From positions 1 to 48,641 of the forward strand of contig DAOWIS010000004.1 of NCBI GenBank assembly GCA_030640805.1: DNA of 48,641 bases. Direction: 5' to 3'. Below are positions 7,017-40,738 of the stretch, one piece after another (positions within the stretch are counted from its first letter, which is position 1; every line of letters starts with the position of its first letter). Source of the stretch: a bacterium (GTDB taxonomy: Bacteria; Patescibacteriota; Minisyncoccia; Minisyncoccales; DAOWIS01). The notes beneath the pieces were generated by a model. It worked only from the letters and a program-made list of their open reading frames with translations, made no database searches and had not been told where the DNA came from. The translations under genes were made by a program, and so were the position numbers.

Positions 7017-7044
7017 CCTTGTACACGCATATGCGTGTACAAGG
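7017..7044. repeat. 28-nt perfect palindrome ccttgtacacgcat|atgcgtgtacaagg (CATATG core)
   Basis: The reverse complement equals the forward sequence. It lies about 50 nt after the rsmA stop. Confidence 0.9.
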
Positions 7045-7049
7045 AAACC

Positions 7050-7106
7050 TTATTGATCCCTATTGATCCCTATTGATTTCCGAAATCAATAGACAAATCA
7101 ATAGAC
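7050..7106. repeat. Compound inverted repeat: (tattgatccc)x2, ctattgatttc-c-gaaatcaatag, then a second atcaatag
   Basis: The 23-nt core hairpin at 7070-7092 recurs at 13581-13611. Confidence 0.75.
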
Positions 7107-7252
7107 ATTACAATAAACCGAACGAACTATAGTTGACATTATTTTTTTGTGTTAAAATAAAGTAGGAAGAAAATATCTCTCTTCTATATTATCGGTTCAC
7201 TCGGTTAAAATGTAAAAAATTTTACATTTTCCCTTCGCTGCCGATAATAAAA

Positions 7253-9181
7253 ATGATGGCTCTAATAAAAATAAAAAATAAAATAAAAAATATTTTAGTG
7301 CTTTTTAGACCTTTAAGACATTCCGAAAAAGGATTTGTTCCAGTTGCTATCATAGCTGTTATTGGTTTAATATCAACATGTGTTAGTAGCACTCTTTCTT
7401 TTTCCTTAATCGATGACGCAGTAAAAATAGGTCTTGGCGTATTTGCTTCAATTTTTTTATTAATTTTGGCTATTTTCCAAGTAATAACCGCTTTATTCCC
7501 GGTTATAACTGGGGCTGCTTTAAGCACAGTAATAACCAGCGAAGTTCCCTTAACCTCGGGAGGAATAGTAGATGCTGGAGTAGAACTAACTAGAAATTTT
7601 GCTAATCTTTTCTTTATTGTTTTTTTGGTGGCAATTGCTATTGCCACTATTTTAAGATTAGAGCGATATGGAATGAAAAAAGCCCTGCCAATGTTAATTT
7701 TAGCCGCTCTTTTAATAAATTTCAGTTCAGTAATTTGCGGAGTGGTTCTGGACGCTGCTCAAGTTGTAATGAATTTCTTTATAATTGACGCTTGGGACAA
7801 CACCAATATTGGACTATCCTTGTTAGAGATGAATGTTATGGAAGCTATACATTTTGATAACATCAATGATATATTTGAAAATTTTACAACATTAACTTTA
7901 CATCAATTTATCGGAAGGGCAGTTAGTATAGTATTCCGAGGAATAATAGCAATATGCTTTAATGTTATAGTTTTTCTAATTTTAGGAGTATATACTATTG
8001 TTTTCCTTTTACGAATAGTTATTATCTGGATTTTAGTAATTTTAGCTCCTTTGGCTTGGTTGGGATTGGCTTTCCCGGCTATCAGAAGTTGGTGGAGCAC
8101 TTGGTGGAAGCATTTTTTCCAATGGTCAATTATTGGAATTGTTTTGCTCTTCTTTTTATGGCTTTCTCTTAATCTTTTAGTCTTAAGGCCAGGGGATATC
8201 TTTGAAAGCTGTGCAGGCATAGGAGGAGAATCATGTCCTCTTGTTCCAGAGGATTTTTTCAGCGGGGAACGGACTGAAGATGACTGGGAGGAATTCGGCA
8301 GGATGCTCATTTGCAGCATTCTCCCTTTTATAACTATAATAGCTCTTTTAATAATTGGTCTTTTGACAGCAGGCAAGTCTGGCGATGTTGGAGCTGGCCA
8401 TGCCCTAAAAGCAACAAAATGGACCGGCCGAAAAATTGGAGGGGCAGCTGGAGGAGTAGCGAAAGAAAAAGCAGCTGGTTGGGCAATGAAAAAAGGAAGT
8501 TTGGCCCAAAAAATAATAAGGGGAATAGAAACCACTCCACTGGTAGGAAAATGGGTTGGAGGACCAGGGGCTATTAGCGCTCGTCTCAGGCCCCCAGAGG
8601 CAGAAGAGAAAAAAATGATGCGTCAACTGAAACCACGAACAACAGCAGATTTACGCACTAGGTTAAAACAAATTGAAAAATTCCCCAGAGGAAGGAAGAA
8701 CCTTGTAGAAATGTCTACTATCTTGAAAGAAATAGCCGGAAGAAAAGAATTTGAAGATCAAGATACCTTACATTTACCACTTCTTGGATCAAGAGGATTT
8801 AGCACTAAAGATTTTTATAAGGCAAGACCAGATTTGGCTGGAGCGGAAAAATTAACAAAAGAGAAAATTCAAAAAAGAATAGACAAAAAAGAAATTATAG
8901 GAGAATCTGACGACATTTCAGCTGTTATACAAAAAATGTCTCCGGAAGTGTTCCAAAAGAATGCTCAATCTGAAGCTTTAAAAAAATGGGAAACATTTAT
9001 TAGAATGGATATCCCGAAACTTAAACGAATGGGCGGCCAAGGAGATGCTGAACAAATCAAGGCAATAGTAGAGGCCGGTAAAGAAGCTCATAGACGTTTC
9101 TCTACTCTTACTGCAGATCAACAAAAGACAGTAAAAAGCTTGCTTGATGAAATGTCAAAACATCCAGAAACCTGGGCTTAA
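7253..9181 (+). CDS. Polytopic membrane protein, TrbL/VirB6-like, with a long charged C-terminal tail
   Basis: About 8 or more hydrophobic segments fill the first ~380 aa, followed by a K/E/R-rich soluble tail of about 260 aa. It is the first gene of a cluster that contains VirB3-, VirB4- and VirB2-like genes. Confidence 0.55.
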   Translation: MMALIKIKNKIKNILVLFRPLRHSEKGFVPVAIIAVIGLISTCVSSTLSFSLIDDAVKIGLGVFASIFLLILAIFQVITALFPVITGAALSTVITSEVPLTSGGIVDAGVELTRNFANLFFIVFLVAIAIATILRLERYGMKKALPMLILAALLINFSSVICGVVLDAAQVVMNFFIIDAWDNTNIGLSLLEMNVMEAIHFDNINDIFENFTTLTLHQFIGRAVSIVFRGIIAICFNVIVFLILGVYTIVFLLRIVIIWILVILAPLAWLGLAFPAIRSWWSTWWKHFFQWSIIGIVLLFFLWLSLNLLVLRPGDIFESCAGIGGESCPLVPEDFFSGERTEDDWEEFGRMLICSILPFITIIALLIIGLLTAGKSGDVGAGHALKATKWTGRKIGGAAGGVAKEKAAGWAMKKGSLAQKIIRGIETTPLVGKWVGGPGAISARLRPPEAEEKKMMRQLKPRTTADLRTRLKQIEKFPRGRKNLVEMSTILKEIAGRKEFEDQDTLHLPLLGSRGFSTKDFYKARPDLAGAEKLTKEKIQKRIDKKEIIGESDDISAVIQKMSPEVFQKNAQSEALKKWETFIRMDIPKLKRMGGQGDAEQIKAIVEAGKEAHRRFSTLTADQQKTVKSLLDEMSKHPETWA

Positions 9182-9193
9182 AATATTTACAAA

Positions 9194-9718
9194 GTGAAAT
9201 CTATGATGAGTCAAAATTCAAAATTTGAAACTGGGGATTTGATAGATTATCTTCTAAAGAAATATGGGTTAGAAAAAAAGCAAAAAGATTTTATAGAAAG
9301 AAATTTAAAAAAGGGCAGACCAGAGGCGATAGAAAATATCTTTAAAAATGCTCCGGGAAGAAAAATTGCCAATATTGTTATTGAAACCCATAAAAGCAAC
9401 TTAAAAGAAAAGAATATAATCCCTCTAATAGAAAGGGACTTAGATTTCGGTTCAAAAACCGCTAAGAGAATGGCTGAAGATATTATAAAAGGAGTTGAAG
9501 AAAAAAAATTAGAAAAAGATGTGGGTAAAATATATGAGAGATGGAAAGAAAAACTTCAGGAAGAAAAAATTGAAGAAAAACCCAAGGATATAAAGAAAGA
9601 ACCATCTCCTCCAGCGCCAGTAAAAGAAAGCAAAGATGTCTATCGCGAGCCAGTTGAACCTCCAGAAAAACCAGAACCACGACTAAACGGAAACATTGTC
9701 AATCTAAAGGGAAAATAA
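9194..9718 (+). CDS. Hypothetical K/E-rich protein with a Pro-rich C-terminus (GTG at 9194; first ATG at 9203)
   Basis: It is a long ORF in the cluster orientation. No recognisable motif was found. Confidence 0.5.
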   Translation: MKSMMSQNSKFETGDLIDYLLKKYGLEKKQKDFIERNLKKGRPEAIENIFKNAPGRKIANIVIETHKSNLKEKNIIPLIERDLDFGSKTAKRMAEDIIKGVEEKKLEKDVGKIYERWKEKLQEEKIEEKPKDIKKEPSPPAPVKESKDVYREPVEPPEKPEPRLNGNIVNLKGK

Positions 9719-9819
9719 ATAATCTAACCCAAAGAAGAAATTTTAATCATTTTTAAATTTTGAGTTTTAATTTTTCATTTTGAATTTTTAATTTGACCAA
9801 GACCGAAGGTCGAGGAAAC

Positions 9820-10122
9820 ATGCAATATCCAGTTCCTCAATTTATTGAAGTAGAAAGTAAAATTGTTGGGCCTCTTTCTTTAAAACAATTCCTTTACTTG
9901 GTAGGAGGACTGGCAATTTGTGTTATTCTGAATCTTTTCTTAAAATTGGGGGTGGTGATAATTTTAGGAATATTTATTATGGGGTTTGTCGGAGCTCTGG
10001 CTTTCTTGAAAATAAATGGTCAGCCCTTTTCTAAAATTCTAAAATCAATGATTCAATTTAGTTTTGGACCAAGAATCTATGTCTGGAAAAAAGAACGCAA
10101 AAGAAACACAAATTTAAAATAA
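9820..10122 (+). CDS. PrgI-family (VirB3-like) small membrane protein
   Basis: A GAGGA RBS lies 4 nt before the ATG at 9820. The N-terminus is MQYPVPQFIEVESKIVGPLSLKQFLYLVGG, followed by two hydrophobic helices, the pattern I recall for PrgI/VirB3-like proteins of Gram-positive-type T4SS. Confidence 0.6.
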   Translation: MQYPVPQFIEVESKIVGPLSLKQFLYLVGGLAICVILNLFLKLGVVIILGIFIMGFVGALAFLKINGQPFSKILKSMIQFSFGPRIYVWKKERKRNTNLK

Positions 10123-10144
10123 ATTTGTGTTAAATTTGTGATTT

Positions 10145-10780
10145 ATGGCGCAACAAGCAAGTAGTCAACAATTCATAGAGATAGAAGACATCAGGGATGG
10201 AGTAATAATTTTAAAAAATAAAGGATTTAGAGCAATCCTTAGGGTTTCTAGTATTAATTTTGCTCTAAAATCTGGGGAAGAGCAAAATGCTATTATTTTT
10301 CAGTTTCAAAACTTTTTAAATTCTTTAGATTTTTCTATTCAAATAATGGTTCAATCCCGATTTCTGGATATTGCTGACTACCTTAAAAAAATAAAAAGTT
10401 TGGAACAAGAACAGGAAAATGAACTATTAAGAATTCAGAGCGTGGAATATAGAGAATTTGTTCAGAGTTTAGTAGAAACTACAAATATTATGAGGAAGGA
10501 TTTCTATGTAGTAATTCCTTTTACAGTTTTTGAGGCAAAAAGAAAAGGATTTATGGAAACCCTCAAAGCAACTTTTAAGCCTCCGAAAGTAGCAGAAATA
10601 AAAGAAGAAGATTTTGCTAGATATAAAGGTCAACTTTGGCAGAGAGTAAACTATATAACTGAGGGACTGGCCCGGATGGGAATTTATGGTGTTCCCTTAA
10701 ATTCTAAAGAATTAATTCAACTTTTCTGGAGTATTTATAATCCCGGAGAAGCTAAAAAAAGAAAAGCTCCAACAGTATAA
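10145..10780 (+). CDS. Hypothetical soluble protein resembling the N-terminal domain of Gram-positive-type VirB4 ATPases
   Basis: FIEIEDIRDGVIILKNKGFRAILRVSSINFALKSGEEQNAIIFQFQNFLNSLDFSIQIMVQS matches the remembered N-terminal pattern (I..I.dG.i....g.y.kil.v..iNf.l.s.eE). It lacks a P-loop. Confidence 0.45.
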   Translation: MAQQASSQQFIEIEDIRDGVIILKNKGFRAILRVSSINFALKSGEEQNAIIFQFQNFLNSLDFSIQIMVQSRFLDIADYLKKIKSLEQEQENELLRIQSVEYREFVQSLVETTNIMRKDFYVVIPFTVFEAKRKGFMETLKATFKPPKVAEIKEEDFARYKGQLWQRVNYITEGLARMGIYGVPLNSKELIQLFWSIYNPGEAKKRKAPTV

Positions 10781-10886
10781 ATGCCAAATGAAAAATGACA
10801 AATGCCAAATTACAGTTCAAATTTTTTAATTTTTAATTTTACATTTTAACTTTTCATTTTGAATTTTGAATTTGAGCGAAGCAAAC

Positions 10887-12686
10887 ATGGCTTTATTTCC
10901 ATTAAAACCAAAAGTAAAAAACGACAAAAAAACCAAAAAAAAGAAAGAGTTAACAATTCCGGATATCATTGCTCCGGCTGGACTTGAGATAGAGCAAAAC
11001 TATTTAAAATTGGAGAATAAATTTATTCGAACTTATTTTATTATTTCCTACCCAGAGAGTTTAAATACTGGCTGGCTGTCGCCTATAATAAATATAGATC
11101 AAATGACAGATGTCTCTATTTTTATTCATCCAGTAAACACAGGATTGGTTTTAAGAAAATTAAGGAAAAAATTAGCTGAGGTTCAAGCCCAAATTATGGA
11201 AAAAGAGGAAAAAGGACTTGTCCGTGACCCCCTGTTGGAAGCCGCTTACAGGAACATTGAAGATTTAAGAGATAAACTTACTCAAGCCCGAGAGAAAATC
11301 TTTAATTTTGGACTATACATCACTATTTACGGAGAAAGATTAGAAGAATTAGATAAAATTGAATCAAGGATTAGGTCTATTTTAGAAACCGAAATGATTT
11401 ATATGAAGCCAGCCCTGTTTAGGCAAAAAGAAGGACTTAATTCATCTCTGCCTTTCTTGTTAGACCAGTTAGACATAAGCTCTCCTATGAATTCCTCGCC
11501 TCTTTCTACTTCTTTTCCTTTTGTTTCTTTTGATCTTACCTCAAATGAGGGAATTTTATATGGCCTCAATCGCCATAATAATTCTTTAGTTCTTTTTGAC
11601 CGATTTAGTTTAGAAAACGCTAACACAGTTATCTTTGGTAAATCAGGTTCGGGTAAAAGCTACAGCGTTAAGTTAGAAGTGCTCCGTTCCTTGATGCTTG
11701 GAATAGATGTCATCATAATAGACCCGGAAAATGAATATCAATATTTAGCTGAAACCTGCGGCGGTTCTTTCTTTAAAATTTCTTTAACTTCAAAACATCA
11801 CATCAACCCTTTTGATTTGCCGTTAGTAGGAGAGGATGAAACCCCGGAAGATATTTTAAGGTCAAATATTATTAATTTAATAGGACTGCTCCGAATAATG
11901 CTTGGGGGATTATCTCCAGAAGAAGACGCCATTATTGATAAGGCCGTTACTGAAACCTATGCTTCAAGAGATATTACTCCAGAATCGGACTTCTCAAAAA
12001 TTACTCCTCCTTTAATGAAAGACTTAGGAACTATTTTGGAGCACACCGAGGGAGGAGAATCTTTGTCTACTCGGCTTAAAAAATATACCGAAGGAACTTA
12101 CGCTGGTTTTTTGAATAATTACACTAATGTAGATATGGGAGCGAAATTAGTGGTTTTTAATATTAGAGATATGGAAAAAGAACTAAGACCGATCGCTATG
12201 TACATTATTTTGCACTATATCTGGAACACCATTAAATCAGAACTTAAAAAAAGAATTCTCATTGTTGATGAGGCTTGGTGGTTAATGCAACACGATGATG
12301 GCGCCTCTTTTCTCTATGGTTTAGCCAAAAGAGCCAGGAAATATTATTTAGGACTTACCACTATTACCCAAGATGTTAATGATTTTATGAAGTCCACTTA
12401 TGGTCAACCCATTATTAGTAATTCTTCTTTGCAGCTTCTTTTGAAACAGTCACCAGCTACTATAGATATAGTGAAGCAAACCTTTAACTTAACCGACCAA
12501 GAAAAATATCTTTTATTGGAATCTGATGTAGGAGACGGACTATTTTTTGCCGGCTTAAAACATGTGGCTATTAAAGTGGTGGCTTCTTATACTGAAGACC
12601 AAGTTATTACTTCTGACCCGGAACAATTACTGGCTATAAAAAAAGCTAAAGAAGAGTTAGCCAAAGAAGAATTAACCAAAGAGTAA
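10887..12686 (+). CDS. virB4: VirB4/TraC-family type IV secretion ATPase (ATG at 10887; the ORF track starts at TTG 10866)
   Basis: Walker A is FGKSGSGKSY and Walker B is RILIVDEAWWLM. TITQD and a C-terminal sensor region are present. The N-terminal domain reads IIAP.GLEIE...L.....R.YFI..YP. Confidence 0.85.
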   Translation: MALFPLKPKVKNDKKTKKKKELTIPDIIAPAGLEIEQNYLKLENKFIRTYFIISYPESLNTGWLSPIINIDQMTDVSIFIHPVNTGLVLRKLRKKLAEVQAQIMEKEEKGLVRDPLLEAAYRNIEDLRDKLTQAREKIFNFGLYITIYGERLEELDKIESRIRSILETEMIYMKPALFRQKEGLNSSLPFLLDQLDISSPMNSSPLSTSFPFVSFDLTSNEGILYGLNRHNNSLVLFDRFSLENANTVIFGKSGSGKSYSVKLEVLRSLMLGIDVIIIDPENEYQYLAETCGGSFFKISLTSKHHINPFDLPLVGEDETPEDILRSNIINLIGLLRIMLGGLSPEEDAIIDKAVTETYASRDITPESDFSKITPPLMKDLGTILEHTEGGESLSTRLKKYTEGTYAGFLNNYTNVDMGAKLVVFNIRDMEKELRPIAMYIILHYIWNTIKSELKKRILIVDEAWWLMQHDDGASFLYGLAKRARKYYLGLTTITQDVNDFMKSTYGQPIISNSSLQLLLKQSPATIDIVKQTFNLTDQEKYLLLESDVGDGLFFAGLKHVAIKVVASYTEDQVITSDPEQLLAIKKAKEELAKEELTKE

Positions 12687-12687
12687 T

Positions 12688-13170
12688 ATGAACGGTCAAG
12701 CCAGCGAAAATGTTTTAACCGAAAAAGAAATTGGAGTCCAGATAGAAGAAGCTGGCAGAAAAGCTGGGGTAGGTTTTCTTGATATCGATTTCCTCTTAAT
12801 TCTATTCTTTGCCATTTTTATAGATATTATTGATTTGCTCCTTGCTTTATTTGTATTTTTAGATCTCTTTACTATTTCTTGGGCTATTTCTGCTGCCATT
12901 GATGTAGTTATTTTTGCAATTATCGGCGGCTGGATATATTGGCGGACAGGAAAAATTGCTAAAAGTAAAAGAAAAAAAATAGAATCTTTGAAAAAAACTA
13001 TTGCCAAAAGGGGTGCTCAGTTGGAAAAACAATTAGCCAAAGGAATAAAAAGTCCTTTTAGAAGAATGTTAGCCCGGGCCGGACTTGGTTTCCTGGGAGA
13101 AATCGCCTGGCTTGTAGGAATTATCCCTTTTTGGACTATCACTGTTTTATTAACTTTAAAAGAAAAATGA
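12688..13170 (+). CDS. Hypothetical membrane protein (about 4 TM segments), cluster-associated
   Basis: It starts 2 nt after the virB4 stop. Its TGA stop overlaps the next gene's ATG (ATGA). Confidence 0.6.
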   Translation: MNGQASENVLTEKEIGVQIEEAGRKAGVGFLDIDFLLILFFAIFIDIIDLLLALFVFLDLFTISWAISAAIDVVIFAIIGGWIYWRTGKIAKSKRKKIESLKKTIAKRGAQLEKQLAKGIKSPFRRMLARAGLGFLGEIAWLVGIIPFWTITVLLTLKEK

Positions 13171-13568
13171 AATTAACGCTTAAAAAAATATATTTCTCTT
13201 GGATATTTTTTTGTTTAATTTTGGCTTTGGCAAATTTTATTTGTGCCTTAGGAATACAGGAGGCTTTAGCTTGGGAAGTAAATTATCCTCAATTTTTTGG
13301 TGTTTCGCCAGAAGGAGGAGGGTTAGTTAATTACATAAATTACATTTTCAATGCCGCCTTAGGCATAGGAGGAATTTTGGCTTTTATAATGATAGTTGTG
13401 GGAGGAGTCAAATTGATGGTTTCCGGTGGCAATCCGTCTAAAATCAGCGATGCTAAAGACCAAATTACCTCAGCTATAATTGGACTTTTGCTTTTACTCG
13501 GGTCTTGGCTAATTCTAAATACTATCAATCCTCAATTAACTGTTTTAACTCTACCTGAATTGCCTTAA
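13167..13568 (+). CDS. TrbC/VirB2-like T4SS pilin (133 aa from the ATG at 13167)
   Basis: A signal peptide ending ALA|WEV is followed by two hydrophobic helices separated by GGNPSKISDAKDQI. This is the hairpin layout of VirB2-type pilins. The start overlaps the previous stop. Confidence 0.6.
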   Translation: MKLTLKKIYFSWIFFCLILALANFICALGIQEALAWEVNYPQFFGVSPEGGGLVNYINYIFNAALGIGGILAFIMIVVGGVKLMVSGGNPSKISDAKDQITSAIIGLLLLLGSWLILNTINPQLTVLTLPELP

Positions 13569-13580
13569 CCGTTAAAATTA

Positions 13581-13611
13581 AAATCTATTGATTTCGGAAA
13601 TCAATAGATTT
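13581..13611 (+). promoter_or_regulatory. 31-nt near-perfect palindrome (15+1+15) between the pilin and pilin-fusion genes; possible attenuator or operator
   Basis: The sequence is aaatctattgatttc-g-gaaatcaatagattt, with the same core as 7070-7092. It lies 12 nt after the pilin stop and 5 nt before the next ATG. Confidence 0.5.
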
Positions 13612-13616
13612 ATTAA

Positions 13617-15290
13617 ATGAAAAAAGTTAAAAAAATTTCTGTTTTAATTTTTTTCCTAATCTTGGGTTTGGGAATTTTTGTTTTTATTTCAGCATTTACC
13701 CCCACACCGAATTTGGTGTGGGGGAAAGAAGTGGATTATCCAGCAATTCCTGGTGCTGAATCTATCACTGAGGGAACCACTCTCCCTCAATATATTAACT
13801 ATATTTTCAATGCTGCTCTCTGGATCGGAGGAATTTTGTGTTTAGCAATGATTATCTGGGGAGGATTTGTCATAATGACAGCTGGCGGAAGTATTGCCAA
13901 AGCAAAAGATGGTAGAGAAAGAATTATTTATGCTATAGGAGGATTATTTCTTCTTTTGGCTTCTTATTTGATTTTATATACTATCAATCCTGAACTAACT
14001 GTTTTAAAACTTCCAGAAATAGCAGAAATTTCTCTTCCTGAATATAATGACGGTGAAATTCCCCAACCTACTGAACCTCAATATGAAATAGAAAAGTTAT
14101 TTTTTGGCGGTTATCTTAGGGAAGCTATGGAATTAGAAAGAGAATCGGCTGAGAAAATGAGACAAATGGTTTGTCTTTCAGTGGGAGATAGGTTTAAGGA
14201 TGAATGTAAAAGGGGGGCCGTCCGTAAGATTTTTGGTTTTGATAAATGCAGATGTGAATATTGCATTCCTTGTATAGCCCAAATATATGTTGAAATAGGA
14301 TGTATTCCTTGTTTCCCTTGTTTTTGCACTGGGAAAGGTCCGGAAGAACTCTGTCCTAAAAATATTTATAAAACTGGTAAAAACACTTTAGATTTAGCCG
14401 AGCGAATAACAAAAAACGCTAATGATTTAGAAAATGCCTTGGAAGGAGAAGGTAAAGATTGCATTAGAGATCCCTCCTGTTTTATTTATGATTATGTTAT
14501 GTCCTGTTGCCCTGACCCACCATTAAGAGCGGCTTGCCCTTCAGGAGGATGTGATTTAGAAAAAGCATCTACTCATTTTATTATCTGCCCAAAAGGAGAA
14601 GATTGTAAATTATTAATATTAGAAAAAGAGGATCAAGATCTAATTAAAGAAGCTATAGAAGCCCAGAGAGAAACAGCAGAAATTATAAGAGAAATGATTG
14701 AAAAAATTAGAGATTGTAGCTGTAAGGGGTATGGAAGTAATGAAGGGTGTAAGTATGAACTCGGAGATGGTTTTTCACCAATCCCTGGTTGTGGCAGCTG
14801 TGGGGGATGTGAATGCAAATGGGGATATGCAGCTGTTGCAGAGCTTAATGAGCTTAGGGATACCAATTGGGAAGATCTACGTGATAGAGCAGTTGGCCAA
14901 ATAAAAGACCAGTTAGGTAATTTACTCATTCAAAGCCTCATCGGGACAATTGACCCCACTGGCTATCTTGCCAATAAACTTAAGGAAGCACTTGATGATC
15001 TATTTAATCTTGGTAGCAAGGGGTTTGATCTTGACCTTCCCTGCAATCCCAAAATTATTCCCCTAATGTATGATCTTGAAGAATTAGCTGATCTGATGGA
15101 AGAAAACGCTGATGAATTAGAACATGGTGTATCTCGGGAAAAACTTATCAAATGCGCTGAAGACGAATTAAAGGGTAAGGCCACCCTTAATTACTGCCCC
15201 TTTGAAGATGGATTAGGTTGTCCAGAGGCCTGTAAGAATGACCCTCGTGATTGTGAATTAACTGATTTCGTCTGTATCAGAAAAAAATAA
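13617..15290 (+). CDS. Pilin-like N-terminal domain fused to a ~420-aa Cys-rich extracellular domain
   Basis: Residues ~35-135 are clearly paralogous to the 13167 pilin (YINYIFNAAL.IGGIL...MI..GG, TINP.LTVL.LPE). I count 33 Cys after residue ~185, including CxC, CC, CxxC and CGSCGGCEC runs. Confidence 0.7.
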   Translation: MKKVKKISVLIFFLILGLGIFVFISAFTPTPNLVWGKEVDYPAIPGAESITEGTTLPQYINYIFNAALWIGGILCLAMIIWGGFVIMTAGGSIAKAKDGRERIIYAIGGLFLLLASYLILYTINPELTVLKLPEIAEISLPEYNDGEIPQPTEPQYEIEKLFFGGYLREAMELERESAEKMRQMVCLSVGDRFKDECKRGAVRKIFGFDKCRCEYCIPCIAQIYVEIGCIPCFPCFCTGKGPEELCPKNIYKTGKNTLDLAERITKNANDLENALEGEGKDCIRDPSCFIYDYVMSCCPDPPLRAACPSGGCDLEKASTHFIICPKGEDCKLLILEKEDQDLIKEAIEAQRETAEIIREMIEKIRDCSCKGYGSNEGCKYELGDGFSPIPGCGSCGGCECKWGYAAVAELNELRDTNWEDLRDRAVGQIKDQLGNLLIQSLIGTIDPTGYLANKLKEALDDLFNLGSKGFDLDLPCNPKIIPLMYDLEELADLMEENADELEHGVSREKLIKCAEDELKGKATLNYCPFEDGLGCPEACKNDPRDCELTDFVCIRKK

Positions 15291-15313
15291 AAAGTTTTCT
15301 TCAAAATTAATGT

Positions 15314-16480
15314 ATGGAAAAATTTTATCTTTCTCTAATATTAATAATTCTAATAATAGCCGGTGTCTCGGCTTATTTTTTTCTTGAGAAAAAAGAAGAT
15401 TTAATAGAAATTGAAATTCCAGAATCTTCTAACCAAAAAAGTCCTCTAAACAGAAATTCTTCCTCTTTTCAATCTTCTGTTTTACCTCAACTCCAAATTG
15501 AAAAAATTTCTCCGGCTAAAGTAATTTCACCGACTCTCAACGAAAATTCATCAAAAATAATTTATTATAATCCCGAGAGTTTGAGTTTGGAAGAAATTGA
15601 TTTTAAAAAAGAAAATTCTCCCTATAATCAATTTTTGTCTTTAGCAAAATTTGAAGGAATAAATAAAATTCTCTGGTCTCCAGAGAAAGACAAATTAATC
15701 GTTTTCTGGGAAAAAGAGGGTCAAATTCAGAAAACTCTCTATAATCCAGAAACTCAAGAGGGTTTTGATCTCCATCAAAATATCAAAAATATTGCTTTTT
15801 CACCTGAAGGAGAAAAAATTGTTTATCAATTTTATAATTCTGAAACCGGAGAAAACAAAATTTCTGTTGCCAGCACCGAAATTTTAGAAACCGAAATTTT
15901 AGAAGAGGAAGATATTTTAAACACTAAAATTTTAGATATAGATCTTTATTGGCCATCGGAAAATAAAATTTTTCTTTGGCAGAATCTCTCTGGGGTATTG
16001 GAAGAAAATGATCTATATCAATTTGACTTAGTAACAAAAAATCCTCCTTTAGTAGTTTTGCCAAAAAAATTTGGCTTCAAACCTAAATGGTCAGAAAGCG
16101 GAAAACTAATTCTATTTTCCGAAGTTCCTTCTTTGGGAGAAGAAGTTAGTCTAAATACTTTAAATAATGAAGGAGAAATCAAAAATCTTAAAATTTCTTC
16201 TTTAGTGGAAAAATGTGCTTTTGATAAGGAAGAAAAATCTCTTTACTGCGGCATCCCTAAAAATTTAGCTCCTGACATTATTCTTCCCGATGATTACTAT
16301 AAAAATTTATTCCAATCCCAAGATAATCTTTTCAAAATTAATTTAGAAACCGGTGAAAAAATTCAGCTTACAAAAGATGCTCAACATGATATCCTTGAGC
16401 CATTTTTGTCCGCTGATGAAAATCATTTATTCTTTACCAATAAAAAAGACGGAGCTTTGTACTCCATCCAACTGGAATAA
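15314..16480 (+). CDS. N-terminally anchored protein with TolB-like beta-propeller-type repeats
   Basis: It has an N-terminal TM segment. Repeated motifs include ILWSPEKDKLIVFW, IAFSPEGEKIVYQF, WSESGKLILFSE and LSADENHLFFTN..DGALYSI. Confidence 0.55.
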   Translation: MEKFYLSLILIILIIAGVSAYFFLEKKEDLIEIEIPESSNQKSPLNRNSSSFQSSVLPQLQIEKISPAKVISPTLNENSSKIIYYNPESLSLEEIDFKKENSPYNQFLSLAKFEGINKILWSPEKDKLIVFWEKEGQIQKTLYNPETQEGFDLHQNIKNIAFSPEGEKIVYQFYNSETGENKISVASTEILETEILEEEDILNTKILDIDLYWPSENKIFLWQNLSGVLEENDLYQFDLVTKNPPLVVLPKKFGFKPKWSESGKLILFSEVPSLGEEVSLNTLNNEGEIKNLKISSLVEKCAFDKEEKSLYCGIPKNLAPDIILPDDYYKNLFQSQDNLFKINLETGEKIQLTKDAQHDILEPFLSADENHLFFTNKKDGALYSIQLE

Positions 16481-23501: not shown

Positions 23502-23521
23502 TAATCCACAGGTTATTCACA
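23502..23521 (+). promoter_or_regulatory. Two adjacent DnaA-box-like 9-mers (TAATCCACA and TTATTCACA)
   Basis: Each differs from TTATCCACA at one position. They lie about 110 nt upstream of dnaA. Confidence 0.5.
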
Positions 23522-23628: not shown

Positions 23629-24966
23629 ATGAACAAGAGTCAACTTTGGCAATCTGTTCTTGCTGAAATTGAATTAAATACCTCGCCGGCTAATTTTGCC
23701 ACTTGGTTTAAGCAAACCTCTGTCTTTTCCAAAAAAGATAGTGTAATTACTATCCAGGTTCCCAATGCTTTCACTAAAGAATGGTTGGAAAATAAATACA
23801 ATAAATTTATTTTTAAAACTATTCGTTCTTTTCTGCCAGAAATAAAAGAAATTAATTATACCATCCACCAACCAAAACCCAAGATCCTTTCTTTTAAAAA
23901 AACTCCCTCTTTAGAAAGACAGTTAGATATATCTCAAATCAAAATCAATAAAGAAACGAATCTTAATCCTCGATATACCTTTGAATCATTTGTGGTTGGT
24001 TCTTTTAATGAATTAGCTAATGCTGCCAGTCAAGCAGTGGTAAAATCGCCAGGCCGAACCTATAATCCTTTATTTATTTATGGAGGGGTTGGGTTAGGGA
24101 AAACTCATCTTCTCCAGTCCATAGGGAACGAAATAACAAAAAATAAACCGTCTTTTAGAGTAATCTACCTTCCTTCAGAAAGATTCACTTCAGAATTGGT
24201 CTCGTCTATTCGGTCTAAAACCGTAAATAATCTTAAACAGAAATATCAAAAAATGGATGTCTTAATTTTGGATGATGTCCAGTTTCTGGGTGGAAAAGAA
24301 AAAACTCAGGAAGAATTTTTTCATATTTTTAATTGTTTGTACGAAAAAAATAAGCAAATTATTTTAAGCTCGGACTGTCCCCCAAAATCTATTTCCACCT
24401 TAGAAGAAAGGCTTCGTTCCCGATTTGAGGGCGGAATGATAGCTGACATTGGATATCCTGATTTTGAAACAAGGGTGGCTATACTTAAAACAAAAATCCA
24501 AGAAAAAAATGTCCAAATTAATGATGGAATTATAAACTTTATTGCTGAGAATATTACAAATAATATTCGGGAGATAGAAGGAGCGCTAAATCGAGTGATT
24601 GCCTCTAATTCTCTTTCTACCCTTTCTTTAGAAGAAGCAAAAAGAAACCTCAAAAAAATTATCACTCCACTAAAAACTATTACCAATTTTAAAAATATCA
24701 TCAAAACAGTTTGTGAGTTCTACGACATATTAGAAAAAAATCTTATTGCTAAGTCTCGAAAAAAAGAAGTAGTTTATCCAAGACAAGTAGCAATGTATTT
24801 AGTTAGAGAAGAATTAAAAAATTCTTATCCCTCAATAGGAGATAGGTTTGGGAAAAGAGACCATACTACTGTTATTTATGCTTGTGAAAAAATTGAAAAA
24901 GAATTACAAAAAGAAGAGAAACTTTTTCAGGAAATAAGTATTATCCGTCAACGACTCTATAAATAG
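23629..24966 (+). CDS. dnaA: Chromosomal replication initiator protein DnaA
   Basis: Motifs seen are NPLFIYGGVGLGKTHLL, LILDDVQFL.GKE.TQEEFFH.FN, NIRE.EGAL and the C-terminal HTTV DNA-binding motif. Confidence 0.95.
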   Translation: MNKSQLWQSVLAEIELNTSPANFATWFKQTSVFSKKDSVITIQVPNAFTKEWLENKYNKFIFKTIRSFLPEIKEINYTIHQPKPKILSFKKTPSLERQLDISQIKINKETNLNPRYTFESFVVGSFNELANAASQAVVKSPGRTYNPLFIYGGVGLGKTHLLQSIGNEITKNKPSFRVIYLPSERFTSELVSSIRSKTVNNLKQKYQKMDVLILDDVQFLGGKEKTQEEFFHIFNCLYEKNKQIILSSDCPPKSISTLEERLRSRFEGGMIADIGYPDFETRVAILKTKIQEKNVQINDGIINFIAENITNNIREIEGALNRVIASNSLSTLSLEEAKRNLKKIITPLKTITNFKNIIKTVCEFYDILEKNLIAKSRKKEVVYPRQVAMYLVREELKNSYPSIGDRFGKRDHTTVIYACEKIEKELQKEEKLFQEISIIRQRLYK

Positions 24967-25233: not shown

Positions 25234-26364
25234 ATGAAAATTATCTGTCTCCAAAAAAAATTAAATCAAGCTATAATTATTACTGAAAAAATTATAGGAA
25301 AAAGTTTTTCTTTACCTGTTTTAGATAATTTATTATTAACTACAGAGAAAAATTTTCTAAAAATATCTTCTACTGATTTAGAATTAGGTATTTCTATTTG
25401 GATTCCAATTAAACTTATAAAAGAGGGAAGTATTAGTATTCCCGCAAAATTAATTAAAGAATATATTTCTAATCTTCCTAATGAAAAAATTGAATTAGAA
25501 TCAAAAAATAATAATCTTCTTATTAAATGTAAAAATTATAAGGCAATTATAAAAGGAGTTGATCCAAAAGATTATCCCCTTATTCCTCAAATAAAAGAAG
25601 GAATAGAATATTTAGAAATAGGAATTAAGGATTTTATTAATGGTCTTTCTATGATAATAGAAACAACCTCTAATTCCGAAACCCAAATAGAAATTTCAGG
25701 GATATTTATAAACTTCTTTAAAAATAACATTAAATTTGTGGCTACAGATAGTTTTAGATTAGCGGAAAAATCTATTTCTTTTTCTCAAGCAATAAAAAAA
25801 CAATTTTCAATTATTCTTCCTAAAAAAACCGCCCAATAAAAAATTAGAATTTTTCAAGGAAGCGGAGAAACATTTAAAATTTTTACTAATCCAAATCAAA
25901 TTTGGTTTAGTTTTTCTCCTAAAGAAATTTCTCTTCCTAAAATCCAGTTAGTTTCTAGATTGATTGAGGGAAAATACCCTGATTACGAACAAATTATTCC
26001 TAAAAATTTCGAAACCCAAATAATTTTAGATAAAGAAGAGTTTTTAAAACATATAAAAATGGCTAGTTTTTTCACCCCTAAACTTAACGAAGTAAGGTTA
26101 AAAATAGAACCCTCCAAAAAAACAATAGAAATTTTATCTCAAGATGTAGACTTAGGAGAAAACAAATCTCAGATGAAAGCAAAGAATATAAAGGGTAAAA
26201 AAATGGAAATAAATTTTAACTGGAGGTATCTTTTAGATGGTCTTAACAATATTTTGAGTTCCGAGATAATTTTCAATCTGAACCAAGAAGAAAGCCCTGT
26301 CACCTTTCAACCAGTAGGAGACCTTAGTTATATTTACGTAGTAATGCCCATCAAAGCAAGTTAG
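25234..26364 (+). pseudogene. dnaN: DNA polymerase III beta sliding clamp interrupted by a single in-frame TAA (25837-25839)
   Basis: ORFs 25234..25839 and 25960..26364 are in the same frame. The stretch between them is open and reads KIRIFQGSGETFKIF...LVSRLIEGKYPDYEQIIP, which is clamp-like. Total length is 377 codons. Confidence 0.85.
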
Positions 26365-35961: not shown

Positions 35962-37473
35962 TCAAATTTTTTCTGTTTTCTTTTTAAGAAAAAAAATACC
36001 AAAGCCTGATAGAATAGCAATCAGGGTAGCAATAATAATAACAACAAGAGGATTAGAAGATTTTTTAAGAGTGGCAGTTAATTGGTCTTGGCTTAACTCT
36101 TTTCCTTGTTCTTTGACATTATTGATGGAAGCGGTTTTAGTAGTAGACTCAGAAGGCAGAGAGGAGTTAAGAGAAAAAGAGGGTATTTCTTGAACCTCAG
36201 AGAAAGAGGGATTGGAAGATAAAGGGATTGCTTGAGAGTTTATAATATTTTGGAGGCCGGGACTGGGAAATTGGGTCCAGAAGAAATTCTGGTCGGATTT
36301 AGCCACGCTCCAGCCCTCTTTTACTTCTTGATAAATTATTTCTTGAGATAATTGGCCAGTGGGATAAAAAAGCCGACAAATATCTTTATTATTATTTAGA
36401 GCAATACCAGAAATTGACCTTGGAACAACCAAATATTGATGAGGAAAAATAAAAGTATTTTCCGGAAAAGAAAAAGGATTACTTCCTTTTTCTTCATCAT
36501 CTAATTGCCAAGAGGAGATATCACAAATTCCCTCGGAATTATTATAAACCTCAATCCATTCTTGGGAATCCGGTCCCTTAGGATTTGGCAGAAATTCGCT
36601 AATTTCCAAGCAATTAAGAAAGATATCAACTTTCAGAATATTTGAAGAAGAGTTTCTTCCATCAGAGACAATAAGATTGACAATATAAGTACCGGGATAT
36701 TGGAAAGTATAAGAAGGATTTTGTTCAGCAGATGTATTACCATCGCCAAAATTCCAAAGGAAATTTAAAGTGTCATCTTCTGGGTCAGATGATTTAGTGC
36801 CATCAAAGTTTATAATCTGTCCTACTAAAGCCACAATATCATCTCCGGCTTCAACGGTTGGTGCTAAATTAGTTGTTGAAGTAGAATCCTTCAGATCCTC
36901 TGATTCCTTTTCTGGCTCTACTAAATTTTGATCTTTGGACCCACTGCTATTTTCTTCTTTTGGAGTTCCTTTAGAATTTTGACTATTTTGCCAATTTTGG
37001 GAATTATTTCCTTCAATCAAGGGATTTACTCTTTCCATAGTTTGCTTGGCCTGATTATCTCCGGCAAACCAGCCATCACTACAATTTACTTGGTCAATTA
37101 AATTATTTTGATTATCAAAAAGTTTTAAATTTTCTCCATTGTTTCCTATGGCGCTAGTATAAATTAGATCAGCCGAAATTTCTGGCAGGGTATCATCATC
37201 AGTTCTTTCCAATAAATAAAAAGAATTAGACAGAACTGTCCCTGTTAATTCAATTTTTGGAGATCCGTCATTTGCTTCCAGTCGCCAGCCATCAAGGTTT
37301 ATTGATGAGTCAGAATTATTATAGAGTTCAATCCATTCGTCATTAGCAGAATTTTCCGTTCCCATCCAAGCAATTTCATTAATTACCACATTTCCGGAAT
37401 CTGCCAAGCAAAAATTATTCCCAAATAAAAAAAGAAAACCCAAGAAACTAATTTTTAAAATAATAGTTTTCAT
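35962..37473 (-). CDS. Secreted, C-terminally anchored protein with lamin-tail domain, PKD domain and a second lamin-tail domain
   Basis: It has a signal peptide. LTD motifs are VVINEIAWMGT...DEWIELYN and ISEFLPNP.G.D..EWIEVYN. The PKD motif is F.WNFGDG......NP.Y.F...G.Y.V.L.V.D. A C-terminal TM segment is followed by KKK. Confidence 0.75.
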   Translation of the reverse strand: MKTIILKISFLGFLFLFGNNFCLADSGNVVINEIAWMGTENSANDEWIELYNNSDSSINLDGWRLEANDGSPKIELTGTVLSNSFYLLERTDDDTLPEISADLIYTSAIGNNGENLKLFDNQNNLIDQVNCSDGWFAGDNQAKQTMERVNPLIEGNNSQNWQNSQNSKGTPKEENSSGSKDQNLVEPEKESEDLKDSTSTTNLAPTVEAGDDIVALVGQIINFDGTKSSDPEDDTLNFLWNFGDGNTSAEQNPSYTFQYPGTYIVNLIVSDGRNSSSNILKVDIFLNCLEISEFLPNPKGPDSQEWIEVYNNSEGICDISSWQLDDEEKGSNPFSFPENTFIFPHQYLVVPRSISGIALNNNKDICRLFYPTGQLSQEIIYQEVKEGWSVAKSDQNFFWTQFPSPGLQNIINSQAIPLSSNPSFSEVQEIPSFSLNSSLPSESTTKTASINNVKEQGKELSQDQLTATLKKSSNPLVVIIIATLIAILSGFGIFFLKKKTEKI

Positions 37474-38965: not shown

Positions 38966-39105
38966 AAAATAAACCTCCAGCTGCAGGTAAAAGGGAATCT
39001 CTCTTAGTTTCGGGTAATCTGGTGGGAACTGGGTTATTCCTCGGAGAATTCCCAACCCTTGGTGTAAGACCAGCGTAAAAATGCCTGCAGCTGGAGGTTT
39101 ATTTT
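38966..39105. repeat. 140-nt element bounded by perfect 22-bp inverted repeats (aaaataaacctccagctgcagg / cctgcagctggaggtttatttt); structured RNA or MITE-like insertion
   Basis: The arms at 38966-38987 and 39084-39105 are exact reverse complements. The 96-nt interior is G+C-richer and has further pairings (GGGAAUCUC/GAGAAUUCCC). The right arm overlaps the pilB stop codon. Confidence 0.5.
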
Positions 39106-40738
39106 ATTGAATAAAACCAGTAACTCTTTCTACCTCTTCCAAAGTAGTAGTTCCTTCAAGAACTTTTAATATTCCATCTTGCTGCATTGTAATCATTCCT
39201 CTTTTTATAGCCGTTTCTTTTAATTCCGGGATGGAAGGAGCTTTTAAGATAAATTTTTCCATTTCTTTATCCACCAAAAAGAATTCAAATATTCCAATTC
39301 TACCCTTGTAACCAGTAAGATTACACTTCTTACATCTCTGGGCTTTCAAAATTTTTAAGTTTTTTAAAGAGGGTCTTTTTAGAGAAGGTGGAAGCAAGGA
39401 AAGCCCCTTTTTTATTTTTTTTGTTTCTTCCGAACTGGGTGAATAAGATTTAGCGCAATGAGAACAAACTTTTCTTACTAATCGTTGAGCAATAGCTAAA
39501 TTTAGAGCCGGAGCAATAATTTCTGGGTTAACTCCCATATCTACCAATCGAGCAACTGTACCAGCGGCATCATTAGTATGAAGAGAAGAAAATACTAAAT
39601 GACCAGTTAAAGCAGCATGAAAAGCAATCTCAGCTGTCTCTCGGTCTCGAATCTCTCCTACTAAAATTACATCGGGGTCTTGCCTTAAGATAGAGCGGAG
39701 TCCATTGGAGAAATCATAGCCTTTTTGGGGATTTACTTGAGTTTGGGAAATACCTTCTAAGTGGTACTCGATAGGATCTTCAATGGTAATTATTTTTATT
39801 TCCGGTTTTTTTATTTGAAAAAGACAGGCATAAAGAGTGGTAGTTTTTCCAGAACCAGTAGGGCCGGTGTTGAGAATTATTCCATTAGGTCGAGAAATCT
39901 CTCTAATGATTGTTTTTTCTAAATCTTCTTTGAGACCAAGTTCTTTTACACTTTTCAGCATTTTTGGGTTAAGAATTCTTAAAACTATTGTTTCGCCATA
40001 TTCACTGGGCAAGACTGAGGTTCTAATTTCTATTTCAATTTTTTCTAAAACAATGCTAAATCTTCCATCTTGGGCCCTTTGATGAATATTTAATTTTAAA
40101 CCAGAGAGAAGTTTTATTCGGGAAAGCAAGAGATGATAAACTCTTGGAGGGATAAAACTGACCTCTTGAAGCATGCCATCAATTCTTAATCTGATTTTTA
40201 TTTTTTCTTCCTCCGGCTCAATATGAACATCCGAAGCGTCTAATTTTAAAGAAGAGGCCAAAAGAATTTCTAAGATCTCGGTAGTTTTTTTGGCAATAAA
40301 TTCTTTAAATTTCTCTTTTAACTCAATGAAATTAGAAATTTCTTTTTGGAATTGAGATAATTTTTCCGGAGAAATTTCCATTTCACCGGTAATTTTTTTT
40401 GAAGGGAGAACAAGTTGGCTATATTTTTTCCAGGCTAAATTTAAACTAGTTGGAGAAACAAAAAAAAGTTTAATTTTAAACCTTTTCTTTTCTAAGTTAT
40501 TTAGGATTTTTTTAAGATTTGGATTTTGAGGATTCTTTGTTGCCACCCCGATATTTTTTCCTAATTTCTGGAAAACTGCCATTTCAGCGGCTTTTGCTTC
40601 TTTTTCTTGGACTAAAGCTAATGCTTCCACTTGAATTGGAACGCTTAGAAGGTTGACATAAGGAAGCTGAAGTTTTTCAGCCAATTCCTGAGTCCTTTTT
40701 TCTTCTTCTTTTCGTCGAATTGCTTCTAAATTTATCAT
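39104..40738 (-). CDS. pilB: GspE/PilB-family type II/IV secretion (type IV pilus assembly) ATPase
   Basis: Walker A is GPTGSGKTTTLY. The Asp and His boxes are present (RQDPDVILVGEIRD, LTGHLV.SSLHTND). The tetracysteine motif is CSHC...CKKC..TGYKGR. Confidence 0.9.
   Translation of the reverse strand: MINLEAIRRKEEEKRTQELAEKLQLPYVNLLSVPIQVEALALVQEKEAKAAEMAVFQKLGKNIGVATKNPQNPNLKKILNNLEKKRFKIKLFFVSPTSLNLAWKKYSQLVLPSKKITGEMEISPEKLSQFQKEISNFIELKEKFKEFIAKKTTEILEILLASSLKLDASDVHIEPEEEKIKIRLRIDGMLQEVSFIPPRVYHLLLSRIKLLSGLKLNIHQRAQDGRFSIVLEKIEIEIRTSVLPSEYGETIVLRILNPKMLKSVKELGLKEDLEKTIIREISRPNGIILNTGPTGSGKTTTLYACLFQIKKPEIKIITIEDPIEYHLEGISQTQVNPQKGYDFSNGLRSILRQDPDVILVGEIRDRETAEIAFHAALTGHLVFSSLHTNDAAGTVARLVDMGVNPEIIAPALNLAIAQRLVRKVCSHCAKSYSPSSEETKKIKKGLSLLPPSLKRPSLKNLKILKAQRCKKCNLTGYKGRIGIFEFFLVDKEMEKFILKAPSIPELKETAIKRGMITMQQDGILKVLEGTTTLEEVERVTGFIQ

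Follow-up and report, generated by a model that had tools for sequence, protein, structure and literature searches.

We analysed a stretch of 48,641 nucleotides from a bacterium of the Patescibacteriota (Minisyncoccia; Minisyncoccales; DAOWIS01; assembly GCA_030640805.1, contig DAOWIS010000004.1), referred to below as the window, which carries a compact gene cluster resembling a type IV secretion system (T4SS) in the vicinity of dnaA. Window numbering is used throughout; the source contig is a 60,428-bp metagenome scaffold, of which the window covers bases 14–48654. The original prediction, made from the sequence alone, described nine co-directional genes with tiny gaps or overlaps. Nine open reading frames (ORFs) were indeed found on the + strand between positions 7253 and 16480, head to tail, tightly packed and all intact:

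7253..9181, + strand: p1, extended VirB6/TrbL-like polytopic membrane protein (Pfam matches of orthologues, family profile, AlphaFold/Foldseek)
9194..9718, + strand: p2, cytoplasmic protein of an unnamed Patescibacteria family (iterative hidden Markov model (HMM) search, alignment)
9793..10122, + strand: p3, PrgI/VirB3-like protein with two transmembrane (TM) helices (PF12666)
10145..10780, + strand: p4, TrsD-like, separately encoded VirB4 N-terminal domain (NF045975, NF045971, NF041427, PF26593)
10866..12686, + strand: p5, VirB4 ATPase of the MPF-FATA-like CD1110 family (NF045971, PDB 4ag5)
12688..13170, + strand: p6, small polytopic membrane protein with 3–4 TM helices, directly after virB4 (phmmer cluster, HMM)
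13131..13568, + strand: p7, short VirB2-like T4SS pilin with a signal peptide and two TM helices (PF18895, NF045849)
13617..15290, + strand: p8, VirB2-like pilin domain (residues 1–135) fused to a 417-aa Cys-rich extracytoplasmic domain (PF18895, Cys count)
15314..16480, + strand: p9, TolB/PD40-like beta-propeller with an N-terminal TM anchor (TIGR02800, family profile)

Counted from the first possible start codons, the spacers between consecutive genes measure 12, 74, 22, 85, 1, −40, 48 and 23 nt. The gene calls of the source contig place later starts in p1 (7256), p2 (9203), p3 (9820) and p5 (10887). For p3 the start at 9820 (MQYPVPQF...) is likely, and p7 most likely starts at 13167, which replaces the 40-nt overlap with p6 by a 4-nt ATGA overlap at the p6 stop codon. 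Because stop codons are frequent at the ~33% GC of this genome, uninterrupted frames of 100–640 codons are not a product of chance; additionally, all nine ORFs have relatives elsewhere. The GC content of the block (0.32–0.37) is the same as that of its flanks. The gene ksgA lies directly upstream of the cluster, rnpA lies 6.4 kb downstream, and dnaA (23629–24966) is found 7.1 kb past the cluster end, so the predicted location near dnaA and among core genes was borne out.

The product of p5, the ATPase, contains both the Walker A (GKSGSGKS) and the Walker B (ILIVDEAW) motifs named in the original prediction, and it passed the cut-off of the CD1110-family model NF045971 (3.7e-114, 382.6 bits against 325), aligning with positions 171–733. 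PF19044 and PF12846 match it as well. Among proteins of known structure, the VirB4 of Thermoanaerobacter (4ag5) was matched with E=1.9e-40 and R388 TrwK with 1e-5, and the match to the VirD4-like model NF045973 (E=0.077) was only P-loop noise. A scan for VirB4 with one genome per species yielded 268 relatives, the best 80 of which define the related loci used for all locus counts given here. These 80 patescibacterial orthologues are 61–72% identical to p5.

The preceding gene, p4, aligns with the N-terminal parts of two VirB4 models, namely positions 102–233 of NF045975 VirB4_plasma (5e-11) and positions 2–119 of NF045971 (3.5e-9). Its match to TrsD (NF041427, 8e-4) stays under the curated cut-off, and a precomputed match to the TraC-like family PF26593 is recorded for this gene on the contig. 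Members of the p4 family were found in 77 of the 80 loci. The PrgI/VirB3-like protein p3 scored 43.6 bits against PF12666 (4.4e-11; cut-off 27), and its family is present in 75 loci. Thus, the assignments proposed for this central part of the cluster were supported by profile searches.

The VirB6 assignment of p1 was reached less directly. Around 8 TM helices are located at residues 27–370 and are followed by a helical cytoplasmic tail of ~270 aa. No Pfam model matched p1 itself, and scans against Pfam and NCBIfam yielded nothing usable for this protein. Twelve of 52 syntenic orthologues, in turn, match PF04610 TrbL, and the database homologue P0048 exceeds the TrbL cut-off. The family profile matches R388 TrwI/VirB6 within the membrane region (E=0.0028), and for the AlphaFold model (predicted local distance difference test score, pLDDT, 74) the best five Foldseek matches in the PDB were all TrwI/VirB6 structures, with probabilities of 0.93–1.0. 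These four concordant but individually weak lines of sequence and model evidence point to a VirB6-like protein with a long tail, and we hold to this putative assignment. Orthologues of p1 occur in 55 of the 80 loci. The one result of a PDB sequence search with p1 was a match of tail residues 509–620 to BurrH, a TALE-like repeat protein (E=5e-6, without any stretch that passes alone). We rejected this match, treating it as helical-repeat or compositional similarity rather than homology.

Between VirB6 and PrgI lies p2, which consists of an N-terminal domain of ~110 aa with seven helices, a Pro-rich linker and a C-terminal motif. The motif, DPYREP (DxYREP), is conserved in the family alignment and reads DVYREP in the window protein. 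BLAST revealed a single relative, and the iterative HMM search found exactly one match per locus in 64 of the 80 loci, each located between the VirB6 and PrgI genes. Another 81 relatives came from databases; none has a name beyond 'hypothetical', and those with a named source organism are patescibacterial. No match to p2 was obtained in Pfam (directly or by scanning family members), in the PDB profile search or with Foldseek against the PDB; the AlphaFold model had a pLDDT of 71. In one related locus (L036:5867-8845), a stop-free frame of 993 codons matches p1 and, at residues 889–993, the p2 family. Read from sequence, this joint frame hints at a functional link between p1 and p2.

The two pilin genes follow further downstream. 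The short protein p7 matches the T4SS_pilin family PF18895 (9.3e-14, 51.7 bits; cut-off 26.6) and just passes the model of the Mbov_0395 pilin-like protein of integrative conjugative elements (ICEs; NF045849, 40.7 bits against 40). It is probably the major pilin subunit. The pilin domain of p8, 50% identical to that of p7, is also recognised by PF18895 (2.1e-10, 41 bits, above the same cut-off). The remainder of p8 (residues 141–557), which we call the head, is rich in cysteines: 33 of the 34 Cys of the protein lie beyond residue 140. In two-helix VirB2 pilins the C-terminal end is extracellular, and this head would therefore be displayed on the surface. Both the pilin and its fusion to a Cys-rich domain had been foreseen in the original prediction.

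The p8 head has no relative in the 80 related loci and no meaningful sequence match in the PDB, and a search of 1.84 billion representative proteins returned only p8 itself. By sequence comparison, it is the only true orphan among the parts of the cluster. Extended pilins as such are common in the related loci, where 63 of 81 pilin-domain ORFs carry C-terminal extensions of more than 50 aa (median 96 aa, maximum 392 aa). These extensions are mutually unrelated, and most of them contain several Cys residues.

The remaining two proteins are p6 and p9. For p6, BLAST and the iterative HMM search over the 80 loci returned only one orthologue (in locus L001), and direct Pfam and NCBIfam scans were unusable. 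In 49 loci, a protein of ~90–250 aa with at least two predicted TM helices starts less than 200 nt from the virB4 stop codon, and these proteins form one phmmer cluster together with p6. An HMM built without p6 or its L001 orthologue gave p6 26.9 bits with high compositional bias. Tentatively, sequence similarity places p6 in a loose family of small polytopic proteins encoded after virB4. The last gene, p9, matches the TIGR02800 TolB propeller (1.5e-6), and its family profile matches the TolB structure 7mx5 with E=1.9e-14; PD40 is matched by 14 of 56 orthologues. The family has invariant K300, C301 and C312, with C301/C312 forming a conserved Cys pair, and in 58 of the 80 loci its gene comes immediately behind the pilin gene(s). 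With its N-terminal TM anchor, p9 agrees well with the membrane-anchored beta-propeller that had been proposed.

The original prediction also stated that four of the nine components belong to no nameable family. This was true in part. VirB6 and the propeller have now been placed, while p2 and p6 belong to conserved families that are unnamed and the Cys-rich domain of p8 stays an orphan. In general, the profile searches upheld the VirB2, VirB3, VirB4 and VirB6 assignments, the last of them through family and fold matches.

The comparison of loci revealed a recurrent gene order, ksgA-p1-p2-p3-p4-p5-p6-pilin(s)-p9, sometimes followed by two Wzy genes and a flippase gene, and then Jag-YidC-rnpA-dnaA. 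All of the best 80 loci come from metagenome-assembled genomes (MAGs) or single-amplified genomes of Patescibacteria, from Parcubacteria/Paceibacteria lineages including Giovannoni-, Azam-, Portnoy-, Specht- and Nomurabacteria, in addition to many records titled 'uncultured Candidatus Saccharibacteria'. The block from ksgA to dnaA thus recurs across dozens of species-level genomes. Such conservation of gene order and position argues for vertical inheritance of a core chromosomal locus, and not for a mobile element.

We searched for mobility genes by scanning the remaining window ORFs (100 aa or longer) against Pfam and by reading the gene table of the source contig up to 56.9 kb of 60.4 kb. 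As the original prediction had held for the window, no relaxase, VirD4-type coupling protein (type IV coupling protein, T4CP), VirB11 or integrase was found, and this holds over the 57 kb of contig. The other window ORFs are housekeeping genes: enolase, wall enzymes, ksgA, two Wzy-like proteins, a flippase, Jag, YidC, rnpA, dnaA and dnaN, and further PBP1, TyrRS, ATP-grasp enzymes, RuvC, RuvB, YebC, a PilB ATPase, a two-component system and Fpg. According to the gene table, the 8 kb of contig beyond the window are of the same kind. Direct repeats resembling att sites were sought around the block, and none flanked it, the repeats found being short and AT-rich or internal. No tRNA gene is present in the window as a possible integration site, and Rfam gave no matches.

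These results bear on whether the cluster is a part or a decayed remnant of an ICE, as the closest characterised relatives of its VirB4, PrgI, TrsD and pilin, which are ICE and plasmid proteins of Firmicutes and Mollicutes, might suggest. The signs that would mark an ordinary ICE (att-like repeats, a relaxase, a T4CP or an integrase around the block) were looked for and none was present on the contig as read. The other defining features of a conjugative element were likewise missing: the window has no tRNA target, and neither an odd composition nor a patchy distribution was seen. The block has the composition of its flanks, its nine ORFs are intact, and dozens of species-level genomes have it at the corresponding place in the chromosome, with VirB4 proteins of the identity given above. 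We therefore regard an ICE origin of this kind as extremely improbable, and the view put forward in the original prediction, of a chromosomal machine that has been domesticated and is not a conjugative element, is supported by the conserved synteny, the lack of mobility genes and flanking repeats, and the flank-like GC content. The tasks named for it there, DNA uptake or host-cell contact, are both compatible with the sequence.

Taken together, we consider it likely (with a probability of roughly 0.8) that the cluster encodes a patescibacterial T4SS which derives from monoderm, MPF-FATA-like conjugation machinery, has its core set of genes beside dnaA, and serves contact and exchange with a host rather than its own transfer. 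In such a machine, the VirB4 ATPase would be made up of two separate chains, p4 as its TrsD-like N-domain and p5 as the ATPase proper. The PrgI/VirB3-like p3 would dock the VirB4 hexamer at the membrane, on a platform formed by the extended VirB6 p1, and the helical tail of p1 together with p2 may provide a cytoplasmic docking surface, which is the job of the coupling protein in other systems. VirB4 would then pull the short pilin p7 out of the membrane, and a VirB2-type pilus or conduit would be polymerised through the cell wall. The fusion pilin p8 would mount a lineage-specific, disulfide-rich head on this structure; its most plausible place is that of a tip or minor subunit, present in few copies and used to recognise the host. 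The proteins p9 and p6 would act as envelope accessories. The machine would serve contact and macromolecule exchange across the host cell surface, with no transfer of an element of its own.

Findings from relatives are in line with this reading. Transposon sequencing in S. epibionticum, the only species for which this has been shown, identified the Saccharibacteria version of the T4SS as essential when the cells grow as epibionts (Wang et al. 2023, PMC10633639); no cultivated strain has the locus described here. In Paceibacterales that grow together with methanogens, the genes for T4SS pilins belong to those with high expression (PMC10936435), and a preprint proposes that tubular structures seen between a parasite and its host are T4SS pili (bioRxiv 10.64898/2026.06.21.733656).

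Several points weigh against this interpretation. The identities of the components come from the matches described above, and their assembly and roles are taken over from characterised T4SSs; filament formation by p7 and p8, in particular, is a prediction. The individual scores behind the VirB6 assignment are weak (E about 1e-3 to 1e-8), and the link between p1 and p2 comes from one frame in one MAG, which could be an assembly artefact. Many relatives have a single pilin with a head of ~100–200 aa, which counters a simple division into major and minor subunits. In 56 related loci, a secreted protein of ~330 aa is encoded between virB4 and the pilin, and it has no homologue in the window. Proteins of this family (e.g. 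L077:11797-12819) are secreted or anchored and Ig-like, with one TM helix and no firm Pfam assignment. No VirB8-like and no clear VirB1-like component was recognised in the window. Finally, the analysis covers one contig, and a T4CP or relaxase could lie elsewhere in the genome; a survey found VirD4-like genes in numerous patescibacterial genomes, usually at a distance from virB4 (Quinonero-Coronel et al. 2025, PMC12102498).

With regard to VirB8, Pfam and NCBIfam scans of the nine products gave no NTF2/VirB8 match. It is possible that p2, p6 and p9 act as VirB8 or VirB1 analogues. Two upstream genes, encoding a LysM-CHAP and an RpfB-like protein, were considered as VirB1 analogues, but both look like housekeeping wall enzymes. 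The LysM-CHAP protein, 2 kb upstream on the opposite strand, looks PcsB/DipM-like and is adjacent to the cluster in only 3 of the 80 loci by BLAST, and rpfB-ksgA is a common housekeeping pair.

The substrate of the machine is the subject of another explanation, by which the cluster would be a dedicated importer of nucleic acids, taking up DNA or RNA from the host or the environment in the manner of H. pylori ComB or of crenarchaeal Ced in reverse. ComB is a T4SS that imports DNA without a T4CP, so DNA-importing systems lacking this component do exist. Patescibacteria lack nucleotide biosynthesis, and the survey of their T4SSs proposes import of DNA or other macromolecules (PMC12102498); moreover, a cultivated relative is reported to feed on host RNA and to have tubular structures at the host interface (bioRxiv 10.64898/2026.06.21.733656). 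The ATPase p5 is also weakly similar to CedB (NF041017, 1e-11) and to CedD. These similarities are, however, below the level of Ced/ComB equivalogs (44 bits against a cut-off of 700 for CedB and 29 against 600 for CedD). As judged from the sequence scores, they reflect only the shared VirB4 superfamily fold, and the best matches of p5 are VirB4 proteins of conjugative monoderm systems.

In S. epibionticum, comEC is dispensable (PMC10633639; PMC12857230) and the T4SS is essential (PMC12857230), which excludes an essential role by way of the classical uptake route. Additionally, Pfam and NCBIfam scans revealed neither a DNA-binding component nor a nuclease among the cluster products. On balance, a dedicated importer seems rather unlikely to us, although it overlaps with the host-contact T4SS that we favour, which would be compatible with import of nucleic acids as well as with export of effectors.

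It could also be asked whether the system translocates anything at all. A VirB2-type pilus with variable heads might be an organelle for adhesion only: hypervariable Cys-rich pilin heads are common in the related loci, the head found here is an orphan, there is no T4CP nearby, and T4SS pili can serve mainly for attachment (PMC12857230). Type IV pili, though, are already adhesive in Saccharibacteria (PMC12857230), and the window encodes a PilB-type ATPase. Furthermore, a full VirB3/4/6 translocon with an extended VirB6 would be costly in a reduced genome. A purely adhesive function thus appears improbable, clearly more so than nucleic-acid import, and a T4SS for both contact and exchange remains our preferred interpretation.

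The non-coding parts of the locus contain several conspicuous signals, three of which lie ahead of the cluster or between its pilin genes:

7051..7110, no strand assigned: TATTGAT half-site array (three direct, two inverted) in the intergenic region between ksgA and the VirB6 gene (sequence read)
7070–7092, no strand assigned: perfect 23-nt palindrome CTATTGATTTCCGAAATCAATAG inside the TATTGAT array (count, RNA folding)
13585..13607, no strand assigned: second copy of the 23-nt palindrome, CTATTGATTTCGGAAATCAATAG, between the pilin genes (count, RNA folding)

The consensus of the 23-nt palindrome is CTATTGATTTC[C/G]GAAATCAATAG, and exactly two copies are present in the window, compared with 0.01 expected; none was found in any of the 80 related loci. 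The copy at 7070–7092 folds at −15.8 kcal/mol (z = −5.9) and the one at 13585–13607 at −12.7 kcal/mol (z = −3.8). Ahead of the cluster, the array with the first palindrome could act as an operator or form an RNA hairpin. The last base of the second palindrome is 9 nt upstream of the p8 ATG. We speculate that this copy could attenuate p8 relative to p7, and in this way influence the p7:p8 ratio, or bind a common regulator.

Another palindrome, a strong one of 26 nt (CTTGTACACGCATATGCGTGTACAAG), is located just after ksgA at 7020–7045 and has a folding energy of −21.6 kcal/mol (z = −7.4). A terminator function is possible, although no T-run is found behind it. Within the cluster, a 46-nt AT-rich repeat with 87% identity occurs at 9751–9796 and 10830–10875, in the spacers immediately preceding the genes for PrgI and VirB4, and extends 4–10 nt into these ORFs as listed. 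It may represent a shared translation or transcription signal.

A broader model can be drawn from the conserved accessory genes and the palindromes together. It would describe the Paceibacteria T4SS as a module of 9–10 genes with at least four conserved components that have yet to be described as parts of a T4SS: p2 with its C-terminal DPYREP motif for docking, p6, p9, and VirB2-type pilins with hypervariable, disulfide-rich heads. The p8 head would be an extreme allele, with its dosage set by the palindrome that the leaders of the cluster and of p8 share. As part of the same model, p2 may replace the coupling-protein receptor, and the pilin heads would be rapidly evolving determinants of host specificity. 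We offer this model as a whole only tentatively, since we think it possible but would not yet favour it.

Some observations concern the neighbourhood of the cluster. A T2SSE-family ATPase at 39104–40738, the only one in the window, was considered as a VirB11 and rejected, as it matches the PilB/GspE type with 3e-139 and VirB11 with 7e-14. In the region 39104–41754 (− strand), this PilB/GspE-type ATPase of the type IV pilus adjoins an ORF of 339 aa without a family. Together with the T4SS cluster, the ATPase means that the same 48 kb encodes parts of both surface machines thought to be important for the epibiotic lifestyle. Large predicted surface proteins were also noted, one with lamin-tail and PKD domains in the window (35962–37473, − strand) and one with Big_1/invasin-like domains in the contig beyond it (L081:11438-12883). 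Both are further candidate adhesins near the T4SS and type IV pilus genes.

The gene dnaN (25234–26364) is split by a single in-frame TAA at 25837–25839. The two resulting ORFs, 25234–25839 and 25960–26364, are in the same frame and jointly cover all three beta-clamp domains, so the stop could be a sequencing or assembly error, the mark of a pseudogene or a site of readthrough. Transcription of the T4SS block, of ksgA and of the RpfB-like gene runs towards dnaA, and that of Jag, YidC and rnpA runs in the direction leading off from dnaA. Should oriC be located next to dnaA, the cluster would face replication head-on in all related loci. DnaA boxes, sought as a sign of oriC, were not enriched (16 against 13 expected) and did not locate it, although near-consensus boxes are present at 23502–23521 and 25118.

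Finally, we compared the cluster with known systems. It shares a CD1110-family VirB4 and a PrgI-type VirB3 with the MPF-FATA T4SSs of monoderm bacteria (CTn2 CD1110 of C. difficile, PrgH/I/J of pCF10 and TrsC/D/E of pGO1), and in pGO1 the VirB4 N-domain is split off as TrsD/TrsE, as it is here (PMC12102498). Neither the cluster nor the MPF-FATA systems have the VirB7/9/10 outer-membrane core proteins or VirB11. Unlike them, however, the cluster lacks the context of a T4CP, a relaxase or an oriT; its operon encodes no hydrolase of the PrgK/TraG type, an adhesin of the PrgB type is missing, and the locus is chromosomal and vertically inherited, not mobile. It also has VirB2-like pilins, which Gram-positive T4SSs generally lack (PMC12102498; PMC12857230).

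A second comparison involves the ICEs of Mycoplasma, whose Mbov_0395 pilin-like model is the one passed by p7. Mycoplasma ICEs are mobile elements with integration and transfer functions of their own. Positions 34–106 (weak, E=0.13), 102–233 and 280–892 of the 894-residue Mbov_0397 VirB4 model (NF045975) are matched in order by p3, p4 and p5, which here are three separate genes; the score of 311 bits compares with an equivalog cut-off of 590 for VirB4_plasma. The pilin-like and VirB4 matches mean that a pilin-like gene beside a FATA-type VirB4 is not unique to Patescibacteria and that such genes occur in at least one conjugative lineage of monoderms. At the level of sequence, this suggests that the T4SSs of Mollicutes ICEs and the patescibacterial system are linked. 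The pilin may therefore be ancestral to this branch of monoderm T4SSs and not borrowed from diderm systems, a question that was raised and left undecided in the 2025 paper (PMC12102498).

With T4SSs of the R388/pKM101 type, the cluster has in common the TrwI-like VirB6 fold (of the stalk complex), the TrwK-like VirB4 domain and the two-helix VirB2-type pilin. It differs in having no VirB5, VirB7–10 or VirB11 and in belonging to a monoderm envelope. The role of a tip adhesin would, by our proposal, fall to the pilin fusion p8 instead of a VirB5.

The closest counterpart is the T4SS clade described for Patescibacteria, which comprises VirB4, TrsD, PrgI, VirB6 and arrays of VirB2-like pilins, is related to MPF-FATA and relaxase-less, and sits near dnaA/dnaN/rnpA/ksgA (PMC12102498). 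All of its sequence-testable features were found at our locus. Compared with this clade, including the S. epibionticum genes SEML1_0006-0019, the shared traits are VirB4, a separate TrsD-like N-domain, PrgI/VirB3, a VirB6 with a long helical cytoplasmic extension (ARM-like in S. epibionticum), tandem divergent VirB2-like pilins (two adjacent ones here), the lack of a nearby relaxase or T4CP, and the position by ksgA/rnpA/dnaA/dnaN. In contrast to S. epibionticum, our cluster has only two pilins, one of them fused to the 417-aa orphan Cys-rich domain, and it has neither an NTF2/VirB8-like gene (SEML1_0012 there) nor hydrolase genes directly downstream of virB4. The TolB-like anchored propeller found here is not in the S. 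epibionticum T4SS table, and PMC12102498 uses none of the terms 'propeller', 'TolB' and 'PD40' in its text or examined supplements.

It is worth stressing that a relaxase-less, dnaA-adjacent T4SS of Patescibacteria was already published in 2023–2025, so the observation is real and not new. Patescibacteria make up a large share of bacterial diversity and are host-dependent, and their T4SS is the first one shown to be essential for its own carrier bacterium. Our cluster is a clean and compact Paceibacteria example that leaves this basic discovery itself unchanged. What goes beyond the published descriptions (PMC12102498, PMC10633639) are the DPYREP family, the small membrane protein encoded after virB4, the TolB-like propeller and the variable Cys-rich pilin heads, the last of which are natural candidates for host recognition. 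The comparison of 80 loci thus draws attention to the conserved accessory proteins and to the cytoplasmic side of a machine that works without a nearby coupling protein.

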